A stretch of 32,000 nucleotides of DNA from Candidatus Saccharimonadota bacterium (GCA_016700135.1 CP065004.1:330001-362000), one strand, 5' to 3'; counted from the first letter of the stretch, positions 7,295 through 28,791 are shown. Notes: generated by a model not told the origin, from the sequence alone. Translations and numbers: made by a program.

Positions 7295-7570
7295 TTATTT
7301 CTTTTTGGCGGCCTTAGCTTCTGCTTTATTTTTTTTTGCATTGCTTATGCGCTCTTCTCGAATGGCTTCCTGGTCTTTCCTTCTTTTCACGGTCCGTTCC
7401 ATATCTTTCTCTGATTCCTCGCGACAAACGGGATCAGAACATTTGTAGATCGATGTTGTGACCGGACTGTGCTGCATGGGAACTTTTTCCACAGTAACGC
7501 TCATCAGGAGCATGTTTTTGCCGCATTTATAGCACTTCCGGTTTGTTAGTTGGGGATATTTAGTTTTCAA
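7295..7570 (-). CDS. small zinc-ribbon protein with lysine-rich tail
   Basis: It has CYKCG...CSDPVC (two CxxC pairs) and a basic C-terminus. Keeping the first CxxC requires the TTG start. Confidence 0.5.
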   Translation of the reverse strand: MKTKYPQLTNRKCYKCGKNMLLMSVTVEKVPMQHSPVTTSIYKCSDPVCREESEKDMERTVKRRKDQEAIREERISNAKKNKAEAKAAKKK

Positions 7571-7603
7571 TATATCCTATTATAACGCAAAAAAAGCTAT
7601 TTT

Positions 7604-7768
7604 TCACGGCAAAAGCAATCCTCTTCTCTTCATTTCCTCCAATATTTTCCCGTGCAAAGGGCGACACTGACAGTTTTTTACGTGTTCGCTATGCCATTGA
7701 ATACGTTCATCAAGTGTGGGGTTTTTCGGCATCTTATGTGCCAGATGCCATTCCTTATTAATATTCAT
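7604..7768 (-). CDS. small conserved-looking protein (54 aa), absent from the ORF track
   Basis: The ATG at 7766-7768 opens MNINKEWHLAHKMPKNPTLDERIQWHSEHVKNCQCRPLHGKILEEMKRRGLLLP. The WH..H.MPKNPT..ERI.WH.EH...C.CR pattern looks like a real small-protein family. It fills an otherwise empty 280-bp gap. Confidence 0.45.
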   Translation of the reverse strand: MNINKEWHLAHKMPKNPTLDERIQWHSEHVKNCQCRPLHGKILEEMKRRGLLLP

Positions 7769-7850
7769 ATTCGTTAGTATAACGTTTTTCCCGTCAAGGC
7801 GCTATGTTTTAAATATTGTCCTTTCCTCCGTTTCCTGATACTATCAAACT

Positions 7851-8246
7851 ATGCCAAAACAGAAAAAAACCTCAAACCCTATGATCTCACTGAATACAGT
7901 TGTGGTCGTTTTTGTATCTTTCGTCATCGGTTTCGGACTTGGTGCAAAAGTAATGCAAACTCAGACAAAATCGGCAGAAAAAATGACGGAGCCGTCACCG
8001 ACTCCTGTGACGGAGTACACATTGGAAGAAATTGCAAAGCACAATACAAAAGCGGACTGTTGGCAGGCAATTGACGGTACGGTCTATGACTTTACTTCAT
8101 ATATCGCATCTGATGAACACCCGGGCGGAGGGGCTATGATTAAAGATTGCGGGACCGATGCATCTGAAAATTTCGCCAATAAGCCGCCGCACTCTGAATA
8201 TGCGCGTTCACTTCTTCCCGACTATGAAATCGGAAAGCTGAAATAA
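7851..8246 (+). CDS. membrane-anchored cytochrome b5-like heme-binding domain protein
   Basis: It has an N-terminal TM segment (VVVVFVSFVIGFGLGA). The b5 signature follows: HNTKADCWQAIDGTVYDFT...EHPGG. Confidence 0.8.
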   Translation: MPKQKKTSNPMISLNTVVVVFVSFVIGFGLGAKVMQTQTKSAEKMTEPSPTPVTEYTLEEIAKHNTKADCWQAIDGTVYDFTSYIASDEHPGGGAMIKDCGTDASENFANKPPHSEYARSLLPDYEIGKLK

Positions 8247-13163: not shown

Positions 13164-13878
13164 GGCTCTAGACTAGCAGAGTAGTGCTAAACTAGAGGTA
13201 TGGTTTGTAACAATAGGCCGATATCAAAATACAAGAGAAAAAAGATACTATGGTGTTTTGCACACGATCTGAGTGCTACACAGACCTCTGGTATTTTGGG
13301 TCTCAACCGCAATACAGTCAACAAATATTACAATAATATTCGTCAACTCATATATCATCACCAAGTGCACCAGATGCAACGATATGTTGGTGGTGAGATA
13401 GAAATTGATGAATCATACTTTGGACCTCGAAGGATGAGAGGCAAGTCAAGTAAAAGAGGTCGTGGGACGTCATTTAAGCAGGTAGTATTTGGGATATATG
13501 AGCGTCAAGGACGTGTATTTACTCGTATCATTCCAAACTGTAAAAGAAGAACGCTACATGCTGTTATGAAGGGAAAGATTGACTTGAACAGTACTGTATA
13601 TTCAGATTCGTGGAGCGGATACAACGGACTTGTTGATGTCGGGTATGACAAACATTTGAGAATCAATCACAAGAAAAATGAGTTCTCAAATACAAAAGGG
13701 GTCCATATCAATGGCATAGAGTCATTCTGGTCCTTTTGTAAAAGACGTCTCGTTAAGTTCAATGGTGTAAAGAAAAACTTTCCATTACACTTGAAAGAGT
13801 GTGAATGGAGATGGAGCAAATCCCCATCGATCCTTTACAATGAACTATTACAAATTGTTAATGTGCTAGTCTAGAGCC
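13164..13878 (+). mobile_element. IS1595-family insertion sequence (IS1016-group size), 715 bp
   Basis: It has perfect 15-bp terminal inverted repeats: GGCTCTAGACTAGCA (13164-13178) and TGCTAGTCTAGAGCC (13864-13878). It holds a single transposase ORF whose stop lies in the right repeat. Confidence 0.85.
13200..13874 (+). CDS. IS1595-family (ISXO2-like DDE) transposase
   Basis: 224 aa, with an N-terminal HTH (LSATQTSGILGLNRNTVNKY). The DDE-region strings are GGEIEIDESYFG, VVFGIYERQG, VYSDSWSGY and HINGIESFW. Confidence 0.85.
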   Translation: MVCNNRPISKYKRKKILWCFAHDLSATQTSGILGLNRNTVNKYYNNIRQLIYHHQVHQMQRYVGGEIEIDESYFGPRRMRGKSSKRGRGTSFKQVVFGIYERQGRVFTRIIPNCKRRTLHAVMKGKIDLNSTVYSDSWSGYNGLVDVGYDKHLRINHKKNEFSNTKGVHINGIESFWSFCKRRLVKFNGVKKNFPLHLKECEWRWSKSPSILYNELLQIVNVLV

Positions 13879-14059
13879 ATGTAAATTAATTTTCCCATTC
13901 TTTACATTATAGCGGGTGATTTCTTGTTATTTAGGTTTTGAAATAAAAAAGAGTTGGCTCGAACGATGGTATGTTTTCAGAAGAACAGACTGGGCAACTG
14001 AGCTGGAATACCCTGAATTTACCAACAAGGAAGTCAACCGTTTTCTTAACTTCTAAGCC

Positions 14060-16833: not shown

Positions 16834-17153
16834 AAAGCCACCCCCTTTTCAGAAATCTTAAATAACAAATTGGTAATCTGCTTGCCTTTATCGGTAAGCG
16901 AGTAATACACCCGCAAACCCTGCTTGTTGTCCGTAACAACACCAGCATCCTTTAAATCCTTGAGGTGATGGGAAATCAGGCTCTGGGACATATCTACATG
17001 CTCCATCAGCTCACACACACAATGCTCCCCTCGGCGAAGAATGCACAAGAGCTTTAAACGGCTTTCCTCGGACACCAACTTAAGAAGTGAGGATAACGAC
17101 TCGACTTGTTTTGATTCCTTACTTGATGGTGAGCAACAACTGTATGAACCCAT
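16830..17153 (-). CDS. arsR: ArsR/SmtB-family metalloregulator (As(III)-type CVC site)
   Basis: It has the HCVCELMEHV...SQSLISHHLKDLKDAGVV winged HTH. The track's TTG start (17189) is part of a -35 hexamer. I prefer ATG 17151-17153 (or 17157-17159), and the transcript may be leaderless. Confidence 0.85.
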   Translation of the reverse strand: MGSYSCCSPSSKESKQVESLSSLLKLVSEESRLKLLCILRRGEHCVCELMEHVDMSQSLISHHLKDLKDAGVVTDNKQGLRVYYSLTDKGKQITNLLFKISEKGVAL

Positions 17154-17155
17154 GT

Positions 17156-17189
17156 TCATATTATATGAAAGCAGTTGATGAAAAGTCAA
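17156..17189 (-). promoter_or_regulatory. arsR promoter TTGACT-N18-TATAAT with operator palindrome over the -10
   Basis: On the minus strand the -35 is at 17184-17189 and the -10 at 17160-17165. The inverted repeat TCATAT-N-ATATGA (17156-17168) encloses the -10. Confidence 0.55.
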
Positions 17190-17252
17190 CGGGAAAGAAT
17201 CAAGAAACCCTATTACTTTTTCTCCTTAGTTTTAGTATACTTTTGTTGAGGT

Positions 17253-17438
17253 ATGCCGAAGAAAAACACGACATTGCCAAAGTTGCTAACAATAAAACAG
17301 GCTTCAGAGATCCTGAATGTGCATGTGGAGACTTTAAGGCGTTGGGACAAGCGCGGGAAACTCAAAGCCATAAGGGTAAACGAGCGAGGAGACAGGCGCT
17401 ATCGACCAGAAGACATAGAAAAATTAATGAAAATATAA
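17253..17438 (+). CDS. excisionase/MerR-type HTH DNA-binding protein (61 aa)
   Basis: LLTIKQASEILNVHVETLRRWDKRGKL is the HTH_17/excisionase signature. Its stop lies 1 nt before the res start. Confidence 0.7.
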   Translation: MPKKNTTLPKLLTIKQASEILNVHVETLRRWDKRGKLKAIRVNERGDRRYRPEDIEKLMKI

Positions 17439-17439
17439 T

Positions 17440-20022
17440 ATGAGCAACTTATATCAACAATTAAAATCAGATGTAATTAACTGGAGACAGCAGGGTTATC
17501 CCTCCTCCTACCCTGTTATTGCAACCATCCTAAACTTCAATAAAAATAATTTTCTAAGACAAGCACAATTTGAGGCACTCGAAACTTACTGGTATTTGCG
17601 ACTGGTTAAAAACACCCCCAATATCTTCGAGCTTTATAAAGAATACTTCCAAGGCAAGGATCTCCTGAAAGCTCTTGGAATTTCTCTGTCAGAGGAGGAT
17701 CTGACCGATTTGTTGCTAGCTGGAGGCGGAATAGATGCAATCTTCGAAAAGGTAAAAACTGATAATGTCTTCGTTAAGAAGTATAAGCTTGAAGCTTTAA
17801 GAGAAACCCTCACCCTTCCATACCCAAGCTACATCTTGGCTTTGGCAATGGGAGCAGGAAAAACAATCCTTATTGCCTCCATCATTGCCACTGAGTTTGC
17901 AATGGCTCTAGAGTATCAAGAGAAAGACGGTATTTTTGTCAGAAACGCTCTGGTATTTGCGCCAGGCAAGACCATCCTTGGAGCATTGAAGGAAATTGCC
18001 GATACTCCATACGACAAGATCCTGCCTGCACGCTTCTACAAATCATTTGTAACCAATGTGAAGTTTACCTATACCAGGGATGGCGAAAAGGACATTCCCG
18101 TCATTCGAGGCAGTTCCTTTAATGTTATCGTCACCAACACCGAGAAAATCAGACTACAAAAAAACAGTATTCCCAAGTCATTTCTCGGCACACAACTGAG
18201 CCTAGGATTAGAAGAAGCCAAAGAGCTGGTTGCCAATCTGCGCTTACAATCAATCACCTCCTTGCCTCACTTAGCCGTCTTTTCAGACGAAGCGCATCAC
18301 ACCTACGGACAAGCATTAGCAGAGGATCTCAAGCGGGTGCGCCAGACCATTAACTACATCAGTGAAAAAACCAATCTTCTGGCAGTTGTTAACACCACAG
18401 GCACGCCTTACTTCCAAAGACAGCTCCTGCGAGATGTTATTTACTGGTATGGACTCTCCCAGGGCATTGAGGATGGCATTCTCAAGGAAGTCCGAGGCAA
18501 CATTGTTGCTTACAAAGAGGTTTCAGAGGAAGACTTTGTTATCGATATCGTCAAAGACTTCTTTCAGGAATACAAAGATGTTCGAGTCAATAACGGCGAA
18601 TACGCAAAACTGGCAATCTACTTCCCTCAGGTTGATGACCTAGACCAGGCTAAACCAATCGTTGAGCAAACGCTCATCTCTCTGAAACTAGATCCATCAG
18701 TTGTCTTACCAGTCCACAATAAATCACCAGAAGACATCAAAGACCTCTTTGACAACCGCATCAACGACCCGCACCTGCCTTACAGGGTGTTCTTGCTAGT
18801 CAACAAAGGCACTGAAGGGTGGAACTGTTTGTCCTTATTTGCCACCGCACTTGCAAGGAAACTCTCTTCCAGCAATAACTTTGTGCTTCAGGCAGCCAGC
18901 AGGTGCTTGAGGCAGGTCAATGGCAATACCAAGAAAGCCAAGATTTATCTCTCCAAAGCCAATGTCTCAGTGCTCGACCGCCAGCTTCAGGAAACCTTTG
19001 GTGAGGGCTTGGATGACCTCAATCGAGCCAAGACCGATACTTACCCAGTTAAGATTACTCTCAAAAAACTAGAAATCGAACCAGTTATCATCAAGAAGCT
19101 TATCCAAAAGATCGTCCCAGAAAACGATGCATCTACCACCTTGAAGGTGGAGAAGCCCAAATCTGACGCCGTAGAGGGGCTTGAGAAGACTGTTTACACC
19201 ATGTCCAAAACCCAGAGGAAAGGCGTCCTGGTTGAGGTTGATAGCGAAAAATCAAAGCCCAGAGATGTAAAGGTTGATTTATACCAGGCAGCAGTCCTGC
19301 TTGCCCATACTTATCGCCTTGACTCTCTAGAGATTTATAAGCTCCTTGCACCTCTTTACCCAGATGGAGAGATGTCTGCTGTTGACCTAGAGCTTGTCCG
19401 TTTACAACTAGAAAAGCAAGTTATCAAATACAAAGTCACTACGGAGACAATCGAAGAAGCCCTGGCACTTATCAAGACCAAAGGCTTTGAGGAAGAAGTC
19501 GAAGACGGCAAGACCTCCTATGTTACCCACATTAGGGTCAATAAGGACAATCTAGAAAAGTATGTCTTGGATACCGACACTTATAAAAAGAAGGCGGGTC
19601 AAATGCCTTTGTTTGGTTTCCACTATGACCCTTACAACTTCGATTCAGAAGACGAACGAGCTTTCTTTGAACAAATATTGGACAAACTCGGCGAAGATCC
19701 AGATAATGTTGAGGATATTTACTTTACAGGGGCACTCACGGATAGGGAGAAAACAGACTTTGCGTTTGAATATAAAGACAATAAAGGCGACTGGCATTCA
19801 TACACACCTGATTTCTTGATCAGAAAGAAAGACGGCAAGTCGCTTATAGTCGAAGTCAAGGGTAAGCCATACAGAAACGAGGCAGCAGAAAAGGAAATGA
19901 AACAACTAGAGGCGATAAATCCTGATAAAATTAAATATGAACTCCTGCTCTTAGAGGAAGGTGAATCGGTGTTTGGTAAAGTAACGCCAGTCTTTAATTG
20001 GATTTACCAAGCCCAAAAATAA
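17440..20022 (+). CDS. res: type III restriction enzyme Res subunit (SF2 helicase plus PD-(D/E)xK nuclease)
   Basis: It has Walker A LAMGAGKT, DEAH box FSDEAHH, and the C-terminal nuclease motif YTPDF...IVEVKG. Length is 860 aa. Confidence 0.85.
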   Translation: MSNLYQQLKSDVINWRQQGYPSSYPVIATILNFNKNNFLRQAQFEALETYWYLRLVKNTPNIFELYKEYFQGKDLLKALGISLSEEDLTDLLLAGGGIDAIFEKVKTDNVFVKKYKLEALRETLTLPYPSYILALAMGAGKTILIASIIATEFAMALEYQEKDGIFVRNALVFAPGKTILGALKEIADTPYDKILPARFYKSFVTNVKFTYTRDGEKDIPVIRGSSFNVIVTNTEKIRLQKNSIPKSFLGTQLSLGLEEAKELVANLRLQSITSLPHLAVFSDEAHHTYGQALAEDLKRVRQTINYISEKTNLLAVVNTTGTPYFQRQLLRDVIYWYGLSQGIEDGILKEVRGNIVAYKEVSEEDFVIDIVKDFFQEYKDVRVNNGEYAKLAIYFPQVDDLDQAKPIVEQTLISLKLDPSVVLPVHNKSPEDIKDLFDNRINDPHLPYRVFLLVNKGTEGWNCLSLFATALARKLSSSNNFVLQAASRCLRQVNGNTKKAKIYLSKANVSVLDRQLQETFGEGLDDLNRAKTDTYPVKITLKKLEIEPVIIKKLIQKIVPENDASTTLKVEKPKSDAVEGLEKTVYTMSKTQRKGVLVEVDSEKSKPRDVKVDLYQAAVLLAHTYRLDSLEIYKLLAPLYPDGEMSAVDLELVRLQLEKQVIKYKVTTETIEEALALIKTKGFEEEVEDGKTSYVTHIRVNKDNLEKYVLDTDTYKKKAGQMPLFGFHYDPYNFDSEDERAFFEQILDKLGEDPDNVEDIYFTGALTDREKTDFAFEYKDNKGDWHSYTPDFLIRKKDGKSLIVEVKGKPYRNEAAEKEMKQLEAINPDKIKYELLLLEEGESVFGKVTPVFNWIYQAQK

Positions 20023-20024
20023 CT

Positions 20025-21809
20025 ATGACAAATGACACAAACAAAAAAATAAAAATCGGCACACCTAACGGCAGACCTATGCTAACATGGGTGAATAAAA
20101 GGCCGTTAGAATCGGTTACAGGTTATCCGACACAACTCACCGAGAGCTTTGGAGACAAAGAAGCGCTCAAAGTGCCTGAATACGGCAAGCTAGAAAAGAA
20201 CTGGCACAACCTTCTCTTTCATGGCGATAACAAAGAAGTGCTCGCCTCTCTCTTGGAGTTAGGTTTCAGAGGCAAGGTTGATCTGATTTATATCGATCCT
20301 CCCTTTGCGAGCAATAAAGATTACATGCGCAAGGTTGAGCTAAGGGGTTTGAAAAGCCTAGGGAGACTAGAAGAGGATAGTGAATCGATTATCCAACAAA
20401 CAATGTATGAAGATATTTGGAAGAGAGATGAATACTTCCAATTTATTTATGAGAGGCTAATTCTCCTCAAAGAACTGCTCGCCGAAACAGGCAGTATTTA
20501 TGTCCACCTTGATTATCGCATGGTTCACTACATCAAAGTATTACTTGACGAAATCTTTGGAGAGGATGGCTTAAAGGCTGAAATTATCTGGAACTATGAA
20601 ACAGGCGGTGTAAACAAAAATGAATATGGGAAAAAACATGACAGCATACTCTTTTACACAAAGAGCGACAAGTTCACATTCAATGCGCAAGATATTCTTG
20701 AAAAAAGAGGAGAAGAAGTATTAAGACGACTTGCTACAGGTGTCGAATCAGCAACTAGGGCTAAGAACGAATTAAGGTTGCCAACTGATGTGTGGAGAAT
20801 CCCTGCAATAAATGCAATGGCCTTGGAAAGGATGGACTATGCCACACAAAAACCAGAGGCGCTTCTAGAAAAAATTATTAAAGCTTCTTCTGATCAAGGA
20901 GATCTGGTAATGGACTGTTTTATTGGCTCTGGCACAACTTGTGCAGTAGCTCAAAAGCTCGCTAGACGATGGATTGGCGTCGATGTCAACAAAGGCGCTA
21001 TCCAAGTAACTAGCAAAAGATTGCAGAAGATTATCAAGGAACAACAGAAAAAACTTATTGACGGACAAATTAGTAAAGCATTGGGGATCTATAAAGTTAA
21101 CAACTATGACCTGAGAATCCTCAAGACTGAAGCCAAAGAGCTAGCAATCCAACAATATGGAATCACCAGAACAAAAACAGAGACATTCTTTGATGGTTTA
21201 AGAGATAGTGGCGAACTGGTAAAAATCATAGACTTCAATCACCCGCTCACACTTCTTGACCTGCAGCTTATCAAGGACGAACTCGATAAACGACCAGAAG
21301 AAGACAGAGATATCGTTGTAATTTGTCTAGGAAGAGAGACAAAAGTCGATTCCTGGGTTGAGGAATGGAATAAAAAACAACCTCATAAAGACGCACGCAC
21401 CAGTAAGCGCATGAGGCAGTTCGTTGTCTTTGATCTTAAGGACAAGAACTTTGTCAGCTACGAACCCTCAAAAGCTGAAGTCGAGATTACTAGAGCGGGT
21501 AAAGATAAAGATAAAGTTAAAATCAAGGTTGTCTCTTTTATCTCCCCTTCCATAATCAAACGCTTGGAACTTGAACCAGGACTACTGCAAAAAAAGATTC
21601 CAGACTTCAGATCAATGATCGATGTCGTTTTGGTAGATACAAACTATGACAACGAAGTGTTCAAGATTGGCTTCTCTGATGTCCCAGAGAAACAGAGCGA
21701 CCTGGTCAAGGGAGAATACGAGCTTGAGATAACAGAAAAACCATCCAAAGTGGCAGTCAAAATCATTGACATGTTAGGAGAAGAAGTCTTGGTTACCAAA
21801 GAAGTGTAA
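20025..21809 (+). CDS. mod: type III Mod-like beta-class amino DNA methyltransferase
   Basis: Motif IV DLIYIDPPF precedes motif I CFIGSGTTCAVAQKL. The ATG at 20025 is 2 nt after the res stop; the track's TTG start is at 19998. Confidence 0.85.
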   Translation: MTNDTNKKIKIGTPNGRPMLTWVNKRPLESVTGYPTQLTESFGDKEALKVPEYGKLEKNWHNLLFHGDNKEVLASLLELGFRGKVDLIYIDPPFASNKDYMRKVELRGLKSLGRLEEDSESIIQQTMYEDIWKRDEYFQFIYERLILLKELLAETGSIYVHLDYRMVHYIKVLLDEIFGEDGLKAEIIWNYETGGVNKNEYGKKHDSILFYTKSDKFTFNAQDILEKRGEEVLRRLATGVESATRAKNELRLPTDVWRIPAINAMALERMDYATQKPEALLEKIIKASSDQGDLVMDCFIGSGTTCAVAQKLARRWIGVDVNKGAIQVTSKRLQKIIKEQQKKLIDGQISKALGIYKVNNYDLRILKTEAKELAIQQYGITRTKTETFFDGLRDSGELVKIIDFNHPLTLLDLQLIKDELDKRPEEDRDIVVICLGRETKVDSWVEEWNKKQPHKDARTSKRMRQFVVFDLKDKNFVSYEPSKAEVEITRAGKDKDKVKIKVVSFISPSIIKRLELEPGLLQKKIPDFRSMIDVVLVDTNYDNEVFKIGFSDVPEKQSDLVKGEYELEITEKPSKVAVKIIDMLGEEVLVTKEV

Positions 21810-21814
21810 CTAAA

Positions 21815-23683
21815 CTAAGCCTTCGCTTTTTCCTCACCAGAAAACTCTTTAATTAGAACATCGAATACTTTCTTGAAGTTTTCTTTGGTATCCTTTGAAA
21901 GTTTATCTTTTACTTCAGTAGCTCTAGATAAAAACTTTTTAGCTAATAAAACTTTGTCAGCTTTGGCTTTGGTGACATACTCTGAGTTGCTGGATTTATA
22001 AGTTTTTGAGCTGTCTTCTATAACATGATTTATAAAGTCCTCTTGGGTAAACAAATCTTCTATCCGCACGCCATCGCTATCCGAAACCGCTTTGATTTGT
22101 GCTTTTTCAACTAGCCACCTTTTTGTTAGGTTTTTCTCTCCATCCTTCTTGCCCTGGTCACTATCGTAAAGGTATAGCACCTTACAACCCCAACCATGTA
22201 GGATTGTTCCCACTTTTGGCATATTTCCTGAACCGCCACCGTAAATAAAGTTTAACTGCCCATCGTCTAAGATCGTCTTAAAAGCTGTCAGGTAATACCA
22301 ATCGGAAGGCCCCTCAACCACCACATTATTGAGCTTGTCAGGATTGGTAATTCCACTCGTTATTTCAAGTCCTATTGCAGTCAAGATAGGGGTTAAGGTT
22401 TCCTTGTCCGACACTTTGTGAATCTTTGATTCAACAGTCGTCCCATCCTCTCGTCCTCTAAAAACTAAACGCACCCGATCCAATTTGTCTGGATCGAGCA
22501 AGTAAGGAGAATGTGTGGAGAAAATGACTGGCATCTTGGCTGAACGATCCTCTAAAACGCTCAGAACATCTCTTTGTGCCTTAGCATGCAAATAAAGCCC
22601 AGGTTCGTCAACCAAAAGGTAGTTTTGTGTGCCAGACTCATAATGAAGCTTGAGCTGGATATAAAAAGAGAGAAACCATTGGAAGCCCTTACTTCGTTGC
22701 TGCATGCTGAACTTTTCACTTTTACCTTCTTCAACAAAGCCAAATACCAAATTATCTCCGTCAAGCATTGCTTCAAGTTCAACCTTATCTTGATTCCAAA
22801 AATCCAAGAAATCTCCCGTAATCGTGGTCGATTTACGACTCAGGTAGTTGATGTTTTGCTGTCGTGTTCGTTCTGCGTTAAGAAGGAGGTCTAGGTCTAT
22901 CTCAGAAATTTTAGCAAAATTCAGCACCGCCTTGTTTTTCTTGGCTTCAGCTAAGGGAATTTGAAACGGCAAAAGATTTTCAAAAGAATCAAAGTAGATA
23001 AAGTTTGGGGTCGATTTGACCAGCGCGTCTGTAAACTTTCTCTCTAGATCAAGAGTTGTCTGAAGTTGTTGAGCTAACTTCACGGCTTCGGCCATATACT
23101 GAGTGGCAGTATTCCTCTGTGCCTCATCCTCGATCTTTGGCAAAAGCGGGGTTAGTTGTTGTTGAAAATCAGTTAATTGCTTTACTAGTGGCGCTGCATC
23201 ACTAAAATCCAGCTCTGGTAAAGTCAAACCAACTGCCTCATTTTTTTTCAGAACTAAAGAAACAGAAGACGCCTTTCCTTTTATGGCTTTCCTTATTTCA
23301 TTAGCTTGCCCATCTAATTTTCCATTTAGCCACTTAGATGTGTCACCATCGAGGTCATAGGTTTTAGGAAATGTCTTAGTAATCGTAAGGTCACAAGATT
23401 TTTGCTCTTTACCTTCTAGTCCGATTGCCTGCAGTAAAGGGTTTATCTCATCTGCTGATAATGTAAAGGTAATTGCGACCTGTGATACGGCCTCCTCATT
23501 AAAAATAGGTTTAGCCTCTTTTCTAATTTCCTTGTCTTTATCAAAATCTTCAACCGCCTCTAATATCGCAGTTTTCCCCGACTCATTTTTCCCAGCAAGT
23601 ATAGTAACCTTTTCCTCAAGATAGATATCTCCAGAATTCTGGACTGAACGATAGTTATTGATCCGAACCTTTTTAATTCTCAT
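21815..23683 (-). CDS. OLD-family ABC-type ATPase fused to a Toprim nuclease domain
   Basis: It has Walker A GKNESGKT, Walker B LLVDEPGLYLH and H-loop STHSPY. The C-terminal Toprim has VVVEGPSDWYYL and LYDSDQG. It is convergent with mod, with 5 nt between the stops. Confidence 0.75.
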   Translation of the reverse strand: MRIKKVRINNYRSVQNSGDIYLEEKVTILAGKNESGKTAILEAVEDFDKDKEIRKEAKPIFNEEAVSQVAITFTLSADEINPLLQAIGLEGKEQKSCDLTITKTFPKTYDLDGDTSKWLNGKLDGQANEIRKAIKGKASSVSLVLKKNEAVGLTLPELDFSDAAPLVKQLTDFQQQLTPLLPKIEDEAQRNTATQYMAEAVKLAQQLQTTLDLERKFTDALVKSTPNFIYFDSFENLLPFQIPLAEAKKNKAVLNFAKISEIDLDLLLNAERTRQQNINYLSRKSTTITGDFLDFWNQDKVELEAMLDGDNLVFGFVEEGKSEKFSMQQRSKGFQWFLSFYIQLKLHYESGTQNYLLVDEPGLYLHAKAQRDVLSVLEDRSAKMPVIFSTHSPYLLDPDKLDRVRLVFRGREDGTTVESKIHKVSDKETLTPILTAIGLEITSGITNPDKLNNVVVEGPSDWYYLTAFKTILDDGQLNFIYGGGSGNMPKVGTILHGWGCKVLYLYDSDQGKKDGEKNLTKRWLVEKAQIKAVSDSDGVRIEDLFTQEDFINHVIEDSSKTYKSSNSEYVTKAKADKVLLAKKFLSRATEVKDKLSKDTKENFKKVFDVLIKEFSGEEKAKA

Positions 23684-23698
23684 TTTAATCTTTCGCTT

Positions 23699-23725
23699 AC
23701 AAAAACTGCCCTCTACAAAGGGCAG
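23699..23725 (-). terminator. intrinsic terminator separating the 290-aa/46-aa gene pair from the OLD gene
   Basis: The minus strand reads CTGCCCT-TTGTAG-AGGGCAG followed by TTTTTG. Confidence 0.5.
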
Positions 23726-23920
23726 GTGAGCGTTGCTCTTATGTAAAGCTCAACTTAATTATACAAGAAATATGAGGAAACTGTAAGAGAACAGATGGAG
23801 CGAACACGCCCGTGACCGCGCGTAGCGGCTTGTGTGGGACTTTCGTGCCTGGGGTGGCATCAGACTACCTTAATTTAGCTTCAGAAGCCTCGTTGGAGCT
23901 GTGTTGAGGAAATTTGGGAG

Positions 23921-24061
23921 TCAATAACTGCAATCCTTGATATTCGCCCAATCAACAGGAATGCCAGAGTTAGTGAATCGGCTAATCACACAATCAGCAG
24001 TAAGCAGAAACCATACAAGAAGGATCGCCAAGATTACAAAAACCGACCACCACTTTTTCAT
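23921..24061 (-). CDS. small membrane protein (46 aa)
   Basis: The internal ATG gives MKKWWSVFVILAILLVWFLLTA.... The track ORF 23921-24106 overlaps the upstream gene. Confidence 0.35.
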   Translation of the reverse strand: MKKWWSVFVILAILLVWFLLTADCVISRFTNSGIPVDWANIKDCSY

Positions 24062-24071
24062 ACTGTTCTGA

Positions 24072-24944
24072 TTATAGCTTTTCAATATCCCAACCCTCGT
24101 TGTCATAGACCGCCACCTGACCGCCTTGGGTAACTGTTAGGCTGACCATGGGGTAACGAGTGGATTTGGTTTTGAGACACCAGACTCCTTGGTCATTTTT
24201 ATACGCCCCCTCACGAGTAGTATCAACATCACCACACTCCTCGTATTCTTTAGTGAAGGGTTTTGAGTAGTCATACCACTTTACGAAGAAGTTGCCAGGT
24301 TTTGTGCCTTCAAATTCATAAGTCATATTGGAGATATCAACGCCAAAAATATCCTTATGCTTGGTCATAAACTCTTCAGCTACCTTACGAACCTGCTCCT
24401 TGGTCGTATATCGGGGAGTATTGTCATACTCAGGCATGTTTTCAAACCAGCGCGTGCCGTCTTCTTTTGTTCCCCAACGGCGCTCTGCCTCTCCTACCTC
24501 TACGATGTAATTGGTCTTAGGGTCAATGGTAAAGGCAAATCGAGCTGCTTCATAGTGTTCTGAAGCTGGGCTGTTATAGTCCGTTCCATTATCACCAGGC
24601 TTGTTGTTAAACCTACTACAGAGGAATTCTACAGGGATATCAGACATCCCCAAAAACTCACGGATATTAGCAATAGCTTTCTCCCTCTCAGCAGCAGGAC
24701 GAGCGGTTAACAAACAGAACTTCTCACGCGCTTCTTTATACTCCTGAGAGTCTTTATTAGGGTTCGCGCTCAGGGTTACCAGGAGCGCGGCTACTTCTTT
24801 GTCTTTTACACTCTCCTGCAAAGATTGCCCTATCTTAGATTGGCTTAAAAAACGAGGAGCTAACACAACTCCCAAGATAATAAGAATAACCAGGAATAAA
24901 ACTGCAGGAATAATTCGAGATTTTGTTTTATGTTTCATTATCAT
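24072..24944 (-). CDS. membrane-anchored/secreted hypothetical protein (290 aa)
   Basis: It has an N-terminal anchor (IIPAVLFLVILIILGVVLA) and no recognisable domain. Confidence 0.6.
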   Translation of the reverse strand: MIMKHKTKSRIIPAVLFLVILIILGVVLAPRFLSQSKIGQSLQESVKDKEVAALLVTLSANPNKDSQEYKEAREKFCLLTARPAAEREKAIANIREFLGMSDIPVEFLCSRFNNKPGDNGTDYNSPASEHYEAARFAFTIDPKTNYIVEVGEAERRWGTKEDGTRWFENMPEYDNTPRYTTKEQVRKVAEEFMTKHKDIFGVDISNMTYEFEGTKPGNFFVKWYDYSKPFTKEYEECGDVDTTREGAYKNDQGVWCLKTKSTRYPMVSLTVTQGGQVAVYDNEGWDIEKL

Positions 24945-25087
24945 TTTTACCTCCTTACAGGCTAAATTAATAACTTTACCCTAGAGGTGTTGCATATTAA
25001 CTTCGCTTGGGGGAGATTGTCAAATCAATGCAAAAAGCTCCCCGCCAGGCGGTAGCTTTCGCTACCCGTAACCCTTTCGAGCTACGA

Positions 25088-25140
25088 CCCGCTACAGGTC
25101 TCCTGAACGAGGAGCTTGCTACCCTGTAGCGGGATTTTTT
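25088..25140 (+). terminator. compound hairpin plus T6 (intrinsic terminator-like) with no upstream plus-strand CDS
   Basis: The 11-bp outer stem is CCCGCTACAGG / CCTGTAGCGGG. It encloses the inner hairpin CTCCT-GAACG-AGGAG and is followed by ATTTTTT. Confidence 0.5.
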
Positions 25141-25333
25141 ATCTGCCATGCCCCATAAAGAGGTTTAGGCAATTACTCATATTCTATCAATTCCAAGGGG
25201 AATTAAAAATAACAACCAGAAACGGTCAAAAGTGGAGATAATGTAAACAAATATGAACAAAAGGTATCTTGAATTGGCACCTGGGATTTGTTTCAATGAG
25301 GATAGATAGGAAGTAAAGCCTAACGAAACGATC

Positions 25334-27053: not shown

Positions 27054-27183
27054 AAAATCTAATCTTGCAAAAAATATCACTGAAACAAAGATTCTCGTAT
27101 ATAACACACTACATACGAGAAGAAGGGCATCTCTGTTTGATATTCCCTAAAAGTTTCTTTATGTTGTGTGTTGCAAAATTACT

Positions 27184-28791
27184 ATGAAAACTGCCATATT
27201 CTGCCGTGTCAGCTCAAAAGAACAAGAGGAGACAGGCTACTCCTTACCAGCCCAGGAGAAGTTCCTCAGAGAGTATGCCGAAAAACAAGGCTTAGAGGTC
27301 GGCAGGGTATTTGCTATTTCCGAGTCGGCTGCAGGCAAAATTCAGCGAAAAACCTTCAATGAGATGCTTGAGTTTGTCAGAAAGAAAAATATCTGCTCCA
27401 TCGTCGTTGAAACCACAGACAGGCTTACCAGAAACTTCTCCGATGTGCCAACCATCGACAAGTGGATCATGGAAGACGATCAACACCAAGTCCATTTGGC
27501 GAAAGAAGGCTGTGTGTTACACAACGCCTCCCGCTCTCACGAGTGGTTCATGTGGCGGGTAAAGGTAGCGACAGCCGAGTATTATGTCCGCTTGCTCTCC
27601 GAGAATGTAAAGAAAGGACAGAAAGAAAAGCTCGCCCAGGGTTGGATACCAACCAAGCCCCCACTAGGATATAAGACTGTTGGTGAGACTGGACACAAAA
27701 TCCACATCATAGACGAAGGCTCAGCACCCCTAGTGAGGAAAATGTTTGAACTATACGCCTCTGGTGACTACTCGATAAAGAGGCTGGCGCAAACCATGTA
27801 TGACGAGGGCATGCGCTCTCCACAAGGCAATAGGCTGGTTAATAGCCGTCTCCACTCCCTCTTACGAGATCCCTTTTACATCGGTAAAATAAGATGGAAC
27901 GACGAAATTCATGAAGGTAAACACCAGCCTTTGATTAGCAAAGAGCTGTTTGATAAAGTTCAGGCACTACTTGTGAGCAAAACAACACCCAAATACAACA
28001 AACACGACTACCTTTTCAAGGGAATGATCCGCTGTGCTGAGTGCGACGGCTTAATCACCTGGGAAATGCACCGAGGGCATCATTACGGACACTGCAATCA
28101 TTATCACGCCTGCACCCAGGAAGGCTGGGTTAAAGAACCAGAGGTTGAAGAACAACTACTTTCAGGCTTTGACGGATTGAAACTTAAGAATAGCCGCATA
28201 GTCGATTGGCTCAAGAAAGCGCTCAAAGAAAGCCATCAGGACGAGATCGAATACCATAACAGCACTGTCGGCGAGCTACAAGCCCGCTACGAGGCAATTC
28301 AGAAGCGGATGGATAAGTTATACGACGATAAGCTGGATGAAAAGATTACCCCAGACTTTTATGCTAGGAAATTCAAGCAATACTCAGAGGAAAAAGACGA
28401 AGTCGCCGAATCAATGAAAAGGCACTCAACCGCCAGCACAGGCTACCTGAACCTGGGCATAAACCTCTATGAACTCTCTCAAAGAGCCAGGGAAATCTAT
28501 CTCCAAGCCAAAGCAAAAGACATGTTAGACGAGCAACGAGCCTTAATCAGACTGGTATTTGGCAAGTTGATACTTAATAACGGAAAACTCTCCTGGGAAT
28601 ACTCCAAAGCCTTCAAGATACTCTCCGAAGCGGTCAACGAGACTAATTGTTCGAAAGTGGATAAAATCGACGATTTTGAAAATGGGAAATTCGAACATCA
28701 CAAAAAGACCGATGTTGCGGGGCAAAAGGGCAATTTGTTGCCCGCTCGTCCCATCTGGCTCCCCGACGTGGATTCGAACCACGAACCTTGA
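27184..28791 (+). CDS. large serine recombinase (integrase)
   Basis: It has the catalytic N-terminus AIFCRVSSKEQ, DRLTRN, a recombinase domain and the Zn ribbon CAECDG...HCNHYHAC, followed by a coiled-coil. The last 23 codons or so run antisense through the tRNA-Asn terminator and 3' exon. Confidence 0.9.
   Translation: MKTAIFCRVSSKEQEETGYSLPAQEKFLREYAEKQGLEVGRVFAISESAAGKIQRKTFNEMLEFVRKKNICSIVVETTDRLTRNFSDVPTIDKWIMEDDQHQVHLAKEGCVLHNASRSHEWFMWRVKVATAEYYVRLLSENVKKGQKEKLAQGWIPTKPPLGYKTVGETGHKIHIIDEGSAPLVRKMFELYASGDYSIKRLAQTMYDEGMRSPQGNRLVNSRLHSLLRDPFYIGKIRWNDEIHEGKHQPLISKELFDKVQALLVSKTTPKYNKHDYLFKGMIRCAECDGLITWEMHRGHHYGHCNHYHACTQEGWVKEPEVEEQLLSGFDGLKLKNSRIVDWLKKALKESHQDEIEYHNSTVGELQARYEAIQKRMDKLYDDKLDEKITPDFYARKFKQYSEEKDEVAESMKRHSTASTGYLNLGINLYELSQRAREIYLQAKAKDMLDEQRALIRLVFGKLILNNGKLSWEYSKAFKILSEAVNETNCSKVDKIDDFENGKFEHHKKTDVAGQKGNLLPARPIWLPDVDSNHEP
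28724..28743 (-). terminator. intrinsic terminator of tRNA-Asn
   Basis: The minus strand reads GGGCAA-CAAA-TTGCCC followed by TTTTG, starting 12 nt after the encoded CCA. Confidence 0.5.

Follow-up and report, generated by a model that had tools for sequence, protein, structure and literature searches.

Does a restriction-modification (R-M) operon that runs head-on into the gene of a second nuclease form one defence unit with it, and is the reversed order of its two core genes a local accident or a trait of its family? Both questions are raised by a gene cluster at positions 17253 to 23683 of a 32,000-nucleotide (nt) stretch of a Candidatus Saccharimonadota bacterium (GCA_016700135.1, CP065004.1:330001-362000). 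This whole stretch is called the window here, all coordinates refer to it, and labels such as L001 denote related loci that were compared with it. An earlier interpretation of the DNA (the sequence-only reading) described a small helix-turn-helix (HTH) gene, a clear type III R-M pair in res-then-mod order, and a convergent OLD-family nuclease gene on a mobile element. We hold, with moderate confidence, that the cluster comprises two autonomous defence modules on one island, namely, a regulator-equipped, Type III-like, res-first R-M system and a Class 1-type OLD nuclease that occupies a variable slot. The genes, their motifs, and the adjoining elements are as follows.

17234-17241, plus strand: AGTATACT palindrome and -10-like box, 12-19 nt before the HTH start codon; candidate promoter element or operator
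17253-17438, plus strand: HTH gene, 61 amino acids (aa); MerR/HTH_17 (excisionase-type) DNA-binding protein
17440-20022, plus strand: res, 860 aa; superfamily 2 (SF2) DEAH helicase-like ATPase with a C-terminal PD-(D/E)xK nuclease
17839-17865, plus strand: Walker A or helicase motif I of Res, ALAMGAGKT, aa 134-142; invariant or nearly so in 50 homologues
18286-18297, plus strand: motif II of Res, DEAH, aa 283-286 (within FSDEAHH, aa 281-287); invariant or nearly so in the family
19807-19860, plus strand: nuclease motif of Res, PDF...IVEVK (P790-D791...E805-V-K807), from alignments of homologues
20025-21809, plus strand: mod, 594 aa counted from the ATG; beta-class DNA methyltransferase
20532-20849, plus strand: target-recognition domain (TRD) of Mod, about aa 170-275; mosaic segment, variable among close relatives
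21810-23811, no strand: variable defence slot, from the mod stop codon to the conserved 100-nt element; holds here the OLD gene and its upstream region
21815-23683, minus strand: OLD gene, 622 aa; N-terminal ABC ATPase and C-terminal Toprim domain
23812-23911, no strand: conserved noncoding element of about 100 nt; right edge of the slot, whatever the cargo

The four open reading frames (ORFs) are judged not to be chance features, because they are long and intact and belong to large conserved families. ORF calls, reading of the junctions, and alignments of homologues all reproduced the ORFs, motifs, and spacings of the sequence-only reading. The HTH gene and res are separated by 1 nt. The TAA stop codon of res lies at 20020-20022, and mod begins 2 nt beyond it at ATG 20025, a start codon that is more likely than the TTG at 19998 given in the ORF list. 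The TAA of mod and the TAG of the convergent OLD gene are exactly 5 nt apart (21810-21814).

Homologues of Res were found in more than 3,981 protein clusters of about 865 aa; they come from many bacterial phyla and from some archaea and keep an identity of 57-60%. With one genome scanned per species, 503 Res loci were recovered, of which 80 were fetched for gene-order analysis; the closest, at 96-99% identity, are in Woesebacteria/Patescibacteria metagenome-assembled genomes, which places the window in a Woesebacteria-like genome of the Candidate Phyla Radiation (CPR). Of the 65 loci with a Mod match, 64 have Mod downstream of res and in the same orientation. The remaining 15 of the 80 comprise 14 loci with too little downstream sequence and L009, which matches only the first 776 residues of Res. 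Because of this near constancy, the res-before-mod order is a conserved family trait and not a local rearrangement, and what had been noted as a reversal in a single operon thus holds for the family, set against phage P1, where EcoP1I has the canonical order of mod then res. A literature search for an explicit description of a res-then-mod Type III order found nothing. The genes upstream of the res-mod loci are heterogeneous housekeeping genes, and the core cassette is therefore res-mod. An Ideonella plasmid encodes a Res of 43.5% identity, again before Mod, flanked by Phd/RelE, a HEC-01 ATPase/DUF4276 pair, and Mrr.

In 29 of the 65 loci, res and mod lie close together (at most 150 nt), and in 34 their junction holds inserts of 0.7-2.3 kb. 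These inserts are almost always co-oriented with the operon and encode HEPN proteins (nine cases), nucleotidyltransferases (three), YhcG-type PD-(D/E)xK proteins (three), and DUF3800 proteins (three), as well as DUF6978, DUF1828/1829, IS200, and Fic proteins and, in L023, a 752-aa OLD-like ATPase. Examples lie at L017:10549-11309, L022:2962-4871, and L023:10510-12768, and some inserts are pairs of HEPN and nucleotidyltransferase genes. Judged by its contents, the junction appears to serve accessory genes, of defence or toxin type, as a landing pad.

The assignment of Mod as a beta-class type III methyltransferase was borne out. Mod matched N6_N4_Mtase (5.4e-50), the EcoP15I Mod structure 4zcf_A (3.9e-20), and, across residues 59-596 and thus at full length, the PADLOC model MTase_III PDLC03633 (3.4e-67). 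Its DPPF at aa 91 precedes FIGSG at aa 299 (numbered from the ATG), which is motif IV before motif I, the beta-class order. Since it is a beta-class enzyme with a DPPF motif, Mod probably methylates adenine at N6, the methylated base being predicted, as any recognition motif would be. The Res proteins of the window and L012 are 99% identical, and their Mod proteins are just 80% identical, with the difference concentrated in about aa 170-275 of Mod, where beta-class enzymes have their TRD, between motifs IV and I. This TRD is 6-38% identical to those of L012, L001, L002, and L003, with flanks that are 90-100% identical, and the window-type TRD recurs in L006 (84-100%) inside more diverged flanks. 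The mosaic fits a recombinational exchange of recognition domains.

The Res protein has the Type III domain plan, and its membership in the canonical Res family is not supported by the searches. In addition to motifs I and II, NTTGTP (aa 318-323) and QAASRCLRQ (aa 484-492) are invariant or nearly so across the 50 homologues, and of the nuclease residues, P790, D791, and E805 are invariant in 50 of 50, with K807 invariant in a 12-sequence alignment only. Profile matches to Res are low: Pfam ResIII reached 28.6 bits, just over its 22.5-bit cutoff, PADLOC REase_III reached 21 bits, and the NCBIfam restriction endonuclease model BPTD_3080 reached 61 bits against a cutoff of 800 (a literature search found the name "BPTD_3080" in no paper). 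Weak matches to PD-(D/E)xK families comprise Tn7_TnsA-like_N (24 bits, below the 26.5-bit cutoff) and DUF1064. Searched against the PDB, the single sequence matched nothing (phmmer, E<=1), and the family profile (E<=10) matched REST corepressor 1 alone, by chance and over 46 residues (E, 0.66). An hhalign comparison with EcoP1I Res aligned 47 columns, in helicase motifs V-VI only, with 2.5% probability; by contrast, a canonical metagenomic Res, that of L131, matches EcoP15I Res at 6e-58. The earlier description of a "clear" type III Res therefore stands for the plan of LAMGAGKT, DEAH, and PD...EVK but not for kinship, there being no detectable relationship to the Res of EcoP1I or EcoP15I beyond motifs V-VI.

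The HTH protein matched Pfam MerR_1 (8.8e-14) and HTH_17 (5e-12), PADLOC mad1 (8.6e-15), the excisionase-family model TIGR01764 (35.5 bits; cutoff, 28.8), and the IS607-type HTH. No XRE/HTH_3 match, which would indicate the lambda-cI/XRE-type fold of C proteins, was obtained in the domain searches. A co-oriented HTH_17-type ORF was found upstream of res in 13 of 68 informative loci (about 19%), directly abutting it in 10, with a gap of 1-2 nt in five loci and 10 nt in L003. Ten of the 13 belong to the CPR clade. In the other three loci, which are from Hakubella, a Bathyarchaeia genome, and a further Patescibacteria genome, the HTH_17 gene is an unrelated one. In six relatives (L012, L003, L005, L006, L007, and L071), the HTH gene stays with res though its own upstream sequence differs from that of the window. 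Other ORFs lie between the HTH gene and res in three of the ten CPR loci (L001, L002, and L010). In L001 and L002, this is a 220-aa ORF with no Pfam match (7336-7998 in both), which starts 1 nt past the HTH stop codon and ends 2 nt before res, so that the HTH-res junction also accepts insertions.

An HTH_17 module about 50% identical to the HTH of the window is fused to the N terminus of the Type I protein HsdM in L142:2854-4599 and L107:3646-5351; in L107, it is detached from HsdM by an apparent frameshift. Because of these fusions, a regulator of R-M genes is more likely than an excisionase. The AGTATACT box, in the form TAGTATACT or TGTATAAT, is shared by the window, L012, L009, L005, L007, and L071, and some relatives have another GTATAC-like copy about 30 nt further upstream; the function proposed for the box, as promoter or operator, is derived from this conservation and position, and autoregulation by the HTH protein would be conceivable. 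The HTH protein is probably a transcriptional regulator of the R-M operon, C-protein-like by position and outside the C-protein family, and it appears to be a lineage-specific, optional add-on to res-mod. The suggestion that a controller-like gene abuts res is thus sustained by the 1-nt, co-oriented junction and its recurrence in 13 loci; as a controller in the strict sense, the protein falls short in its family and in its presence in only about 19% of related loci. Precedents exist both for R-M islands with small repressors and for a C protein encoded upstream of the restriction gene (PMC12255303). The mad1 gene of MADS is a dispensable regulator-like component whose deletion affects defence little (bioRxiv 10.1101/2023.03.30.534895).

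The 622-aa ATPase-Toprim protein recognised earlier is a bona fide OLD nuclease in which all catalytic residues are conserved. It matched the PADLOC Old model (1.9e-27, residues 349-542), AriA, GajA, AAA_15 (2e-20), and the TsOLD structure 6p74, and a weak MAD3-like match was found in its N-terminal part. Its ATPase residues (Walker A AGKNESGKT, signature RSKGxQ, Walker B DEPG, and H391 of the H-loop) and its Toprim residues (E457-G-x-S-D461, D507-x-D509, and E542-D543) are invariant in an alignment of 17 sequences. Its neighbours in the window, the convergent mod and the gene of a 290-aa protein, include no UvrD/PcrA, retron, or AriB partner, and a helicase, retron, or split AriB partner is also absent from the neighbourhoods of its homologues. 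Assignments to Gabija, PARIS, and retron systems were ruled out, there being no partner genes, and the protein is best described as a predicted partner-less, Class 1-type nuclease.

An orthologue of this OLD was found in only 1 of the 80 related R-M loci, L002, where it is 96% identical and has the same 5-nt junction; a role as conserved partner of the res-mod family was ruled out by the 79 loci that lack it. Homology between the window and L001, L003, L012, L005, and L006 ends at 21809-21814 and restarts at about 23806-23829. Between these points, L001 carries a different OLD-like gene and a 349-aa gene, L012 carries Avs4 (2003 bits), L003 carries a PycTM-like gene and a 1141-aa gene, and L005 and L006 carry unknown genes. 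Comparison of these sequences indicates that OLD sits in a cassette-swapping defence slot downstream of mod. The element at its right edge (23812-23911) is 89-94% identical in L001, L003, and L005, above the identity of the adjoining genes there, and 77-79% identical in L006 and L012; it could be an unknown RNA or serve as a site for recombination. The question left by the sequence-only reading, whether the R-M system and OLD act independently or as one unit, is answered in part: they are not one fixed unit, as seen from the 79 of 80 loci without OLD, the exchange of slot contents, and the solitary position of some OLD relatives.

A terminator-like hairpin, CTGCCCTTTGTAGAGGGCAG followed by a T-run (23706-23725, minus strand), lies between a promoter-like site at 23758-23787 and the OLD start codon and is kept in L002. 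It may be the terminator of an upstream gene or an attenuator, and promoter and terminator counts in the scan of 16900-24100 were at the level of shuffled sequence (13 promoter sites versus 12 expected).

Class 1 OLDs have been described as single genes away from other defence genes, with their function an open question (2023 review, PMC10568477), and all that Schiltz et al. (2019) remarked was that species-specific operons contain 107 of 837 old genes (PMC6755086). The clade of the OLD of the window counts at least 1,633 clusters. A metagenome scan recovered 422 relatives of this OLD, and 80 loci of these were analysed. An R-M gene was found within two genes of OLD in 32 of the 80 (seed BLAST) and, after dereplication, in 23 of 55 clusters at 90% identity and 12 of 32 at 70%; one OLD cluster (at least 70% identity) adjoins at least five kinds of R-M. 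An unbiased Pfam tally of the 116 nearest neighbours is headed by HNH (8), N6_Mtase/HsdM (6), HsdS (5), GmrSD (4), MvaI/BcnI (3), N6_N4_Mtase (3), and D12 methyltransferase (3). The share of R-M genes among ORFs falls with distance from OLD, from 32% at less than 150 nt (26 of 81, all co-oriented) to 13% at 150-1500 nt, 5% at 1.5-3 kb, and 1% at 3-5 kb, a contrast that is inflated by the drawing of seeds from near neighbours, which biases towards the near bins.

In several loci, OLD is embedded in an R-M operon. L141:3482-11317 reads hsdM-old-hsdS-hsdR, with a last gene that matches HsdR 2w00 at 6.5e-40, and L131:82-6254 reads mod-old-res with a canonical Res; a methyltransferase, an MvaI/BcnI restriction enzyme, and old follow one another with 4-nt overlaps in L103 (1195-4557), L104, and L161, and L100 has BsoBI-old. 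A relative of 76% identity is convergent with an EcoO109I-type R-M system, and one of 59% identity, whose element also has DUF5659, lies beside Dam-like, HinfI, and N6_N4 R-M genes. On the contigs of four relatives (45-72% identical), neither an R-M neighbour nor a helicase partner is present, and three of the four sit among housekeeping genes; more distant relatives on plasmids of cultured Lactococcus and Bacillus are solitary. The linkage between the OLD clade and R-M genes is strong and extends to all R-M types. The concern raised with the sequence-only reading, that the OLD gene might never be linked to R-M pairs of this kind, is dispelled by R-M adjacency in at least 40% of the 80 loci.

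The reading that we favour is built on the observed gene structures, domains, conservation of catalytic residues and gene order, TRD mosaicism, slot variability, and co-occurrence. Under this reading, Mod would recognise its sequence through an exchangeable TRD and methylate host DNA, and Res would join Mod and cut unmodified DNA after ATP-driven communication along the DNA. The res-before-mod order would be the fixed design of a large, horizontally mobile family, and expression of res first need not kill a newly entered host, because Res without Mod could not find DNA. The HTH protein would be an optional upstream regulator that stands where a C protein would stand but is not one. OLD would be a second, independently transcribed line of defence: its convergent orientation means that it is not co-transcribed with mod, and the presence of Avs4 or another OLD-like or PycTM-like gene in the slot of close relatives supports its independence from the R-M system. 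Antiphage activity would be expected of each module, and two-site, ATP-dependent cleavage would be expected of the R-M system.

Several observations weigh against this reading. Restriction activity is a prediction from sequence, and because Res is so diverged from characterised Res proteins, a Type III mechanism for it (two head-to-head sites and cleavage at a fixed distance) would be an extrapolation. An AlphaFold2 model of Res from the 50-sequence alignment (mean pLDDT, 61.5; pTM, 0.42) was too poor for a fold assignment, and a Foldseek search of this model against the PDB gave meaningless AAA+ matches only (E>0.02). The promoter scan showed no promoter for mod inside res and none for the operon. 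A search for a direct repeat of the 3' end of the tRNA-Asn gene at the right of the window found none, and the left boundary of the island is undefined. The independence of OLD is weakened by the strong linkage of its clade to R-M genes, operonic embedding included, and by the other OLD-like or ATPase-Toprim genes that lie beside the res-mod family (L001, L023, and the HEC-01 of Ideonella).

The main rival is functional coupling, in which OLD would assist or back up R-M systems at large and hence res-mod here; we regard it as a tentative possibility. OLD could act as a guard, kept latent by the R-M complex and released when phage antirestriction proteins disable R-M; PrrC, which is latent with the R-M system in the EcoprrI locus, and PARIS, which is triggered by Ocr, are precedents. 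It could instead serve as a clean-up enzyme that destroys restriction-made DNA ends in lineages poor in RecBCD/AddAB capacity, and OLD proteins have been reported to be 5'-3' exonucleases on linear DNA (PMC10568477). R-M genes within two genes of OLD (32 of 80 loci; 23 of 55 and 12 of 32 after dereplication), their 32% share of ORFs within 150 nt, all co-oriented, against 1% at 3-5 kb, nearest neighbours dominated by HsdM, HsdS, GmrSD, Type II restriction enzymes, and methyltransferases, the embedding in L141, L131, and the MvaI/BcnI loci, the 76% and 59% relatives that abut Type II systems, and the single cluster beside at least five R-M kinds all speak for coupling. Yet OLD is convergent and separately transcribed in the window, 79 of the 80 res-mod family loci lack an orthologue, and an R-M neighbour is missing from at least 58% of OLD-clade loci, though many of these contigs are short. 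The four relatives of 45-72% identity without such a neighbour, three of them in housekeeping surroundings, point the same way, clustering in defence islands without functional interaction is common, and the distance contrast is inflated by the choice of seeds. In its broadest form, the proposal would make the OLD clade a set of generic accessory modules for R-M types I, II, III, and IV, coupled to them physically or functionally. Apart from this, the res-first family would be a distinct, unnamed branch of ATP-dependent R-M; this broad view we consider possible but doubtful.

Two further proposals concern the R-M operon itself. That the HTH protein is a recombination directionality factor of the serine recombinase of the island, placed before res by chance, is suggested by its score above the TIGR01764 cutoff (35.5 versus 28.8 bits), its IS607-type HTH match, and the large serine recombinase further right in the window. 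We think this unlikely, for the HTH gene lies about 10 kb from that recombinase, travels with res in the six relatives whose upstream sequence differs, has unrelated HTH_17 counterparts abutting res in Hakubella and a Bathyarchaeia genome, and is homologous to modules fused to HsdM in Type I operons. The other proposal, that Res and Mod form an epigenetic or repair module with, for example, a recombination or transposition-like function, draws on the weak scores of Res against restriction models, the naming of its relatives as only helicase or TnsA endonuclease N-terminal proteins, and the lack of any plausible relative of Res in the PDB at E<=1 (single sequence) or E<=10 (profile). It appears very improbable, however, in view of the strict linkage with a Type III-class Mod (64 of 65 loci), a TRD shuffling of the kind by which specificities typically diversify under pressure from phages, and the horizontal spread of the family across phyla. 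The company of the operon also argues against it: HEPN, nucleotidyltransferase (toxin-antitoxin), DUF3800, and OLD-like genes occur within it, Avs4, HEC-01, and Mrr lie beside it, and distant relatives of Res are found in plasmid helicase-methyltransferase-nuclease operons.

Taken part by part, two autonomous modules on one island resemble known systems. With the Type III systems EcoP1I and EcoP15I, the operon shares two genes, a beta-class Mod, and a Res made of an SF2 DEAH ATPase and a C-terminal PD-(D/E)xK domain; it differs from them in the res-then-mod order, in a Res similarity limited to motifs V-VI, in the genes between res and mod in about half of the res-first family, and in the upstream HTH gene of some members. 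The position of mod upstream of res as a defining Type III feature is a reading of the classic systems.

Relatives of Res at about 30% identity were found in three-gene operons on clinical and environmental plasmids of Enterococcus and Vibrio (L088:1235-8475 and L089:1137-8571). Their order is mod-first: they open with the gene of a PcrA/UvrD helicase that ends in a Cas4-like nuclease tail, continue with a methyltransferase gene, and close with that of a Res-like helicase-nuclease. These operons are annotated only generically, and their Res-like protein is not recognised by PADLOC. Across the plasmid operons of Enterococcus, Vibrio, and Nitrosomonas, the Res-like protein aligns over 90% of its length at about 30% identity, has the same domain plan and a weak BPTD_3080 match, and is encoded adjacent to a beta-class methyltransferase. 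Unlike them, the res-first family has no PcrA/UvrD-Cas4-like helicase and places res first.

The OLD of the window is like the Class 1 OLDs (P2 Old, Thermus scotoductus OLD, and Escherichia coli YbjD) in being one ATPase-Toprim polypeptide of about 600 aa with no partner, and its best PDB match is TsOLD 6p74. It is unlike their described isolation (PMC10568477) in that its clade abuts or is embedded in R-M systems in at least 40% of sampled loci and in that it lies, in the window, 5 nt from mod inside a defence slot. The HTH protein is, like the C proteins of Type II R-M systems and RptR (PMC12255303), a small DNA-binding protein encoded directly upstream of a restriction gene and co-oriented with it; unlike C proteins, it has a MerR/HTH_17 rather than a lambda-cI-like fold, it occurs in about 19% of family loci, and its C-box is a candidate only. 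MADS, whose mad1 model is matched by the HTH protein, also couples a methyltransferase with nuclease and ATPase genes, but its mandatory mad6, mad7, and mad8 are absent from the window. Since mad1, mad2, and mad5 count as accessory in the MADS model definition because they resemble generic R-M parts and regulators, membership in MADS was ruled out for a cluster with a generic mad1-like HTH, a weak MAD3-like match in OLD, and no mad6-8. Like PrrC, RloC, and the HEPN genes in R-M loci, the OLD clade and the inserts of the res-mod junction are accessory nuclease or toxin genes within R-M operons, with the difference that the embedded OLD protein is an ATPase-Toprim nuclease and not an anticodon nuclease.

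Each part is thus of a known kind. Two variants are under-described, namely, the res-first family, with the inserts at its junction, and the OLD clade that is embedded in R-M systems. NCBI names the relatives of Res "DEAD/DEAH box helicase" or "TnsA endonuclease N-terminal domain-containing protein." The res-first family occurs in at least 503 species genomes, where its annotation goes no further than "DEAD/DEAH box helicase" plus "site-specific DNA-methyltransferase," and it scores weakly on the restriction-enzyme models of PADLOC. Counts of R-M systems may for this reason be too low, above all in CPR bacteria, which depend on R-M to a large extent. The cutter-first order and the insertions at the junction raise the question of how such a system is safely established in a new host, and if the landing-pad interpretation is true, the res-mod junction would be a dedicated site for second-line defence genes. 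The operons with embedded OLD (hsdM-old-hsdS-hsdR, mod-old-res, and methyltransferase-restriction enzyme-old) are concrete test systems for cooperation between R-M and OLD, and if an R-M-linked OLD clade is truly coupled, it would supply a long-missing biological role for partner-less Class 1 OLD proteins.

The genomic setting of the cluster agrees with the mobile element proposed earlier, in that a large serine recombinase lies beside a tRNA-Asn gene. Three further features were located to the right of the slot.

25051-25171, minus strand: LOOT RNA (RF03000, 79.4 bits), between the 290-aa gene and the DUF5659 gene
27166-28791, plus strand: large serine recombinase (Resolvase, 1.2e-19; Recombinase, 1.7e-17; Zn_ribbon_recom), syntenic in L002
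28756-29052, minus strand: tRNA-Asn(GUU) gene with its anticodon loop split by a 222-nt group I intron (Rfam RF00028, 90.6 bits)

The slot is followed on the right by the 290-aa protein, for which no Pfam match was found, the LOOT RNA, DUF5659, an HTH_36 protein, and then the large serine recombinase, which is probably the integrase of the island. The tRNA-Asn gene was called by ARAGORN with introns allowed, and its splice sites fit the U(-1)/omega-G rule. The 3' end of the recombinase ORF overlaps the 3' exon of this tRNA gene, which suggests an attachment site of the island, and the tRNA-Asn gene is probably the integration target or the edge of the island. To the left of the operon are an arsR/thioredoxin/permease cluster and an IS1595 transposase (gene at 13200-13874). 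Together, the serine recombinase, the tRNA-Asn gene, and the IS1595 gene support a setting in an integrative genomic island or mobile element, as predicted from gene content. Adjoining the IS1595 gene is a sequence of about 100 nt (13957-14057). Neither it nor the 23812-23911 element gave a family match in Rfam or covariation in RNAalifold. Its minus strand holds tRNA-like D-arm and T-arm strings that were called by neither ARAGORN nor Rfam, and copies about 80-86% identical to it lie near the R-M genes in L009 (twice), L012, L007, and L071.

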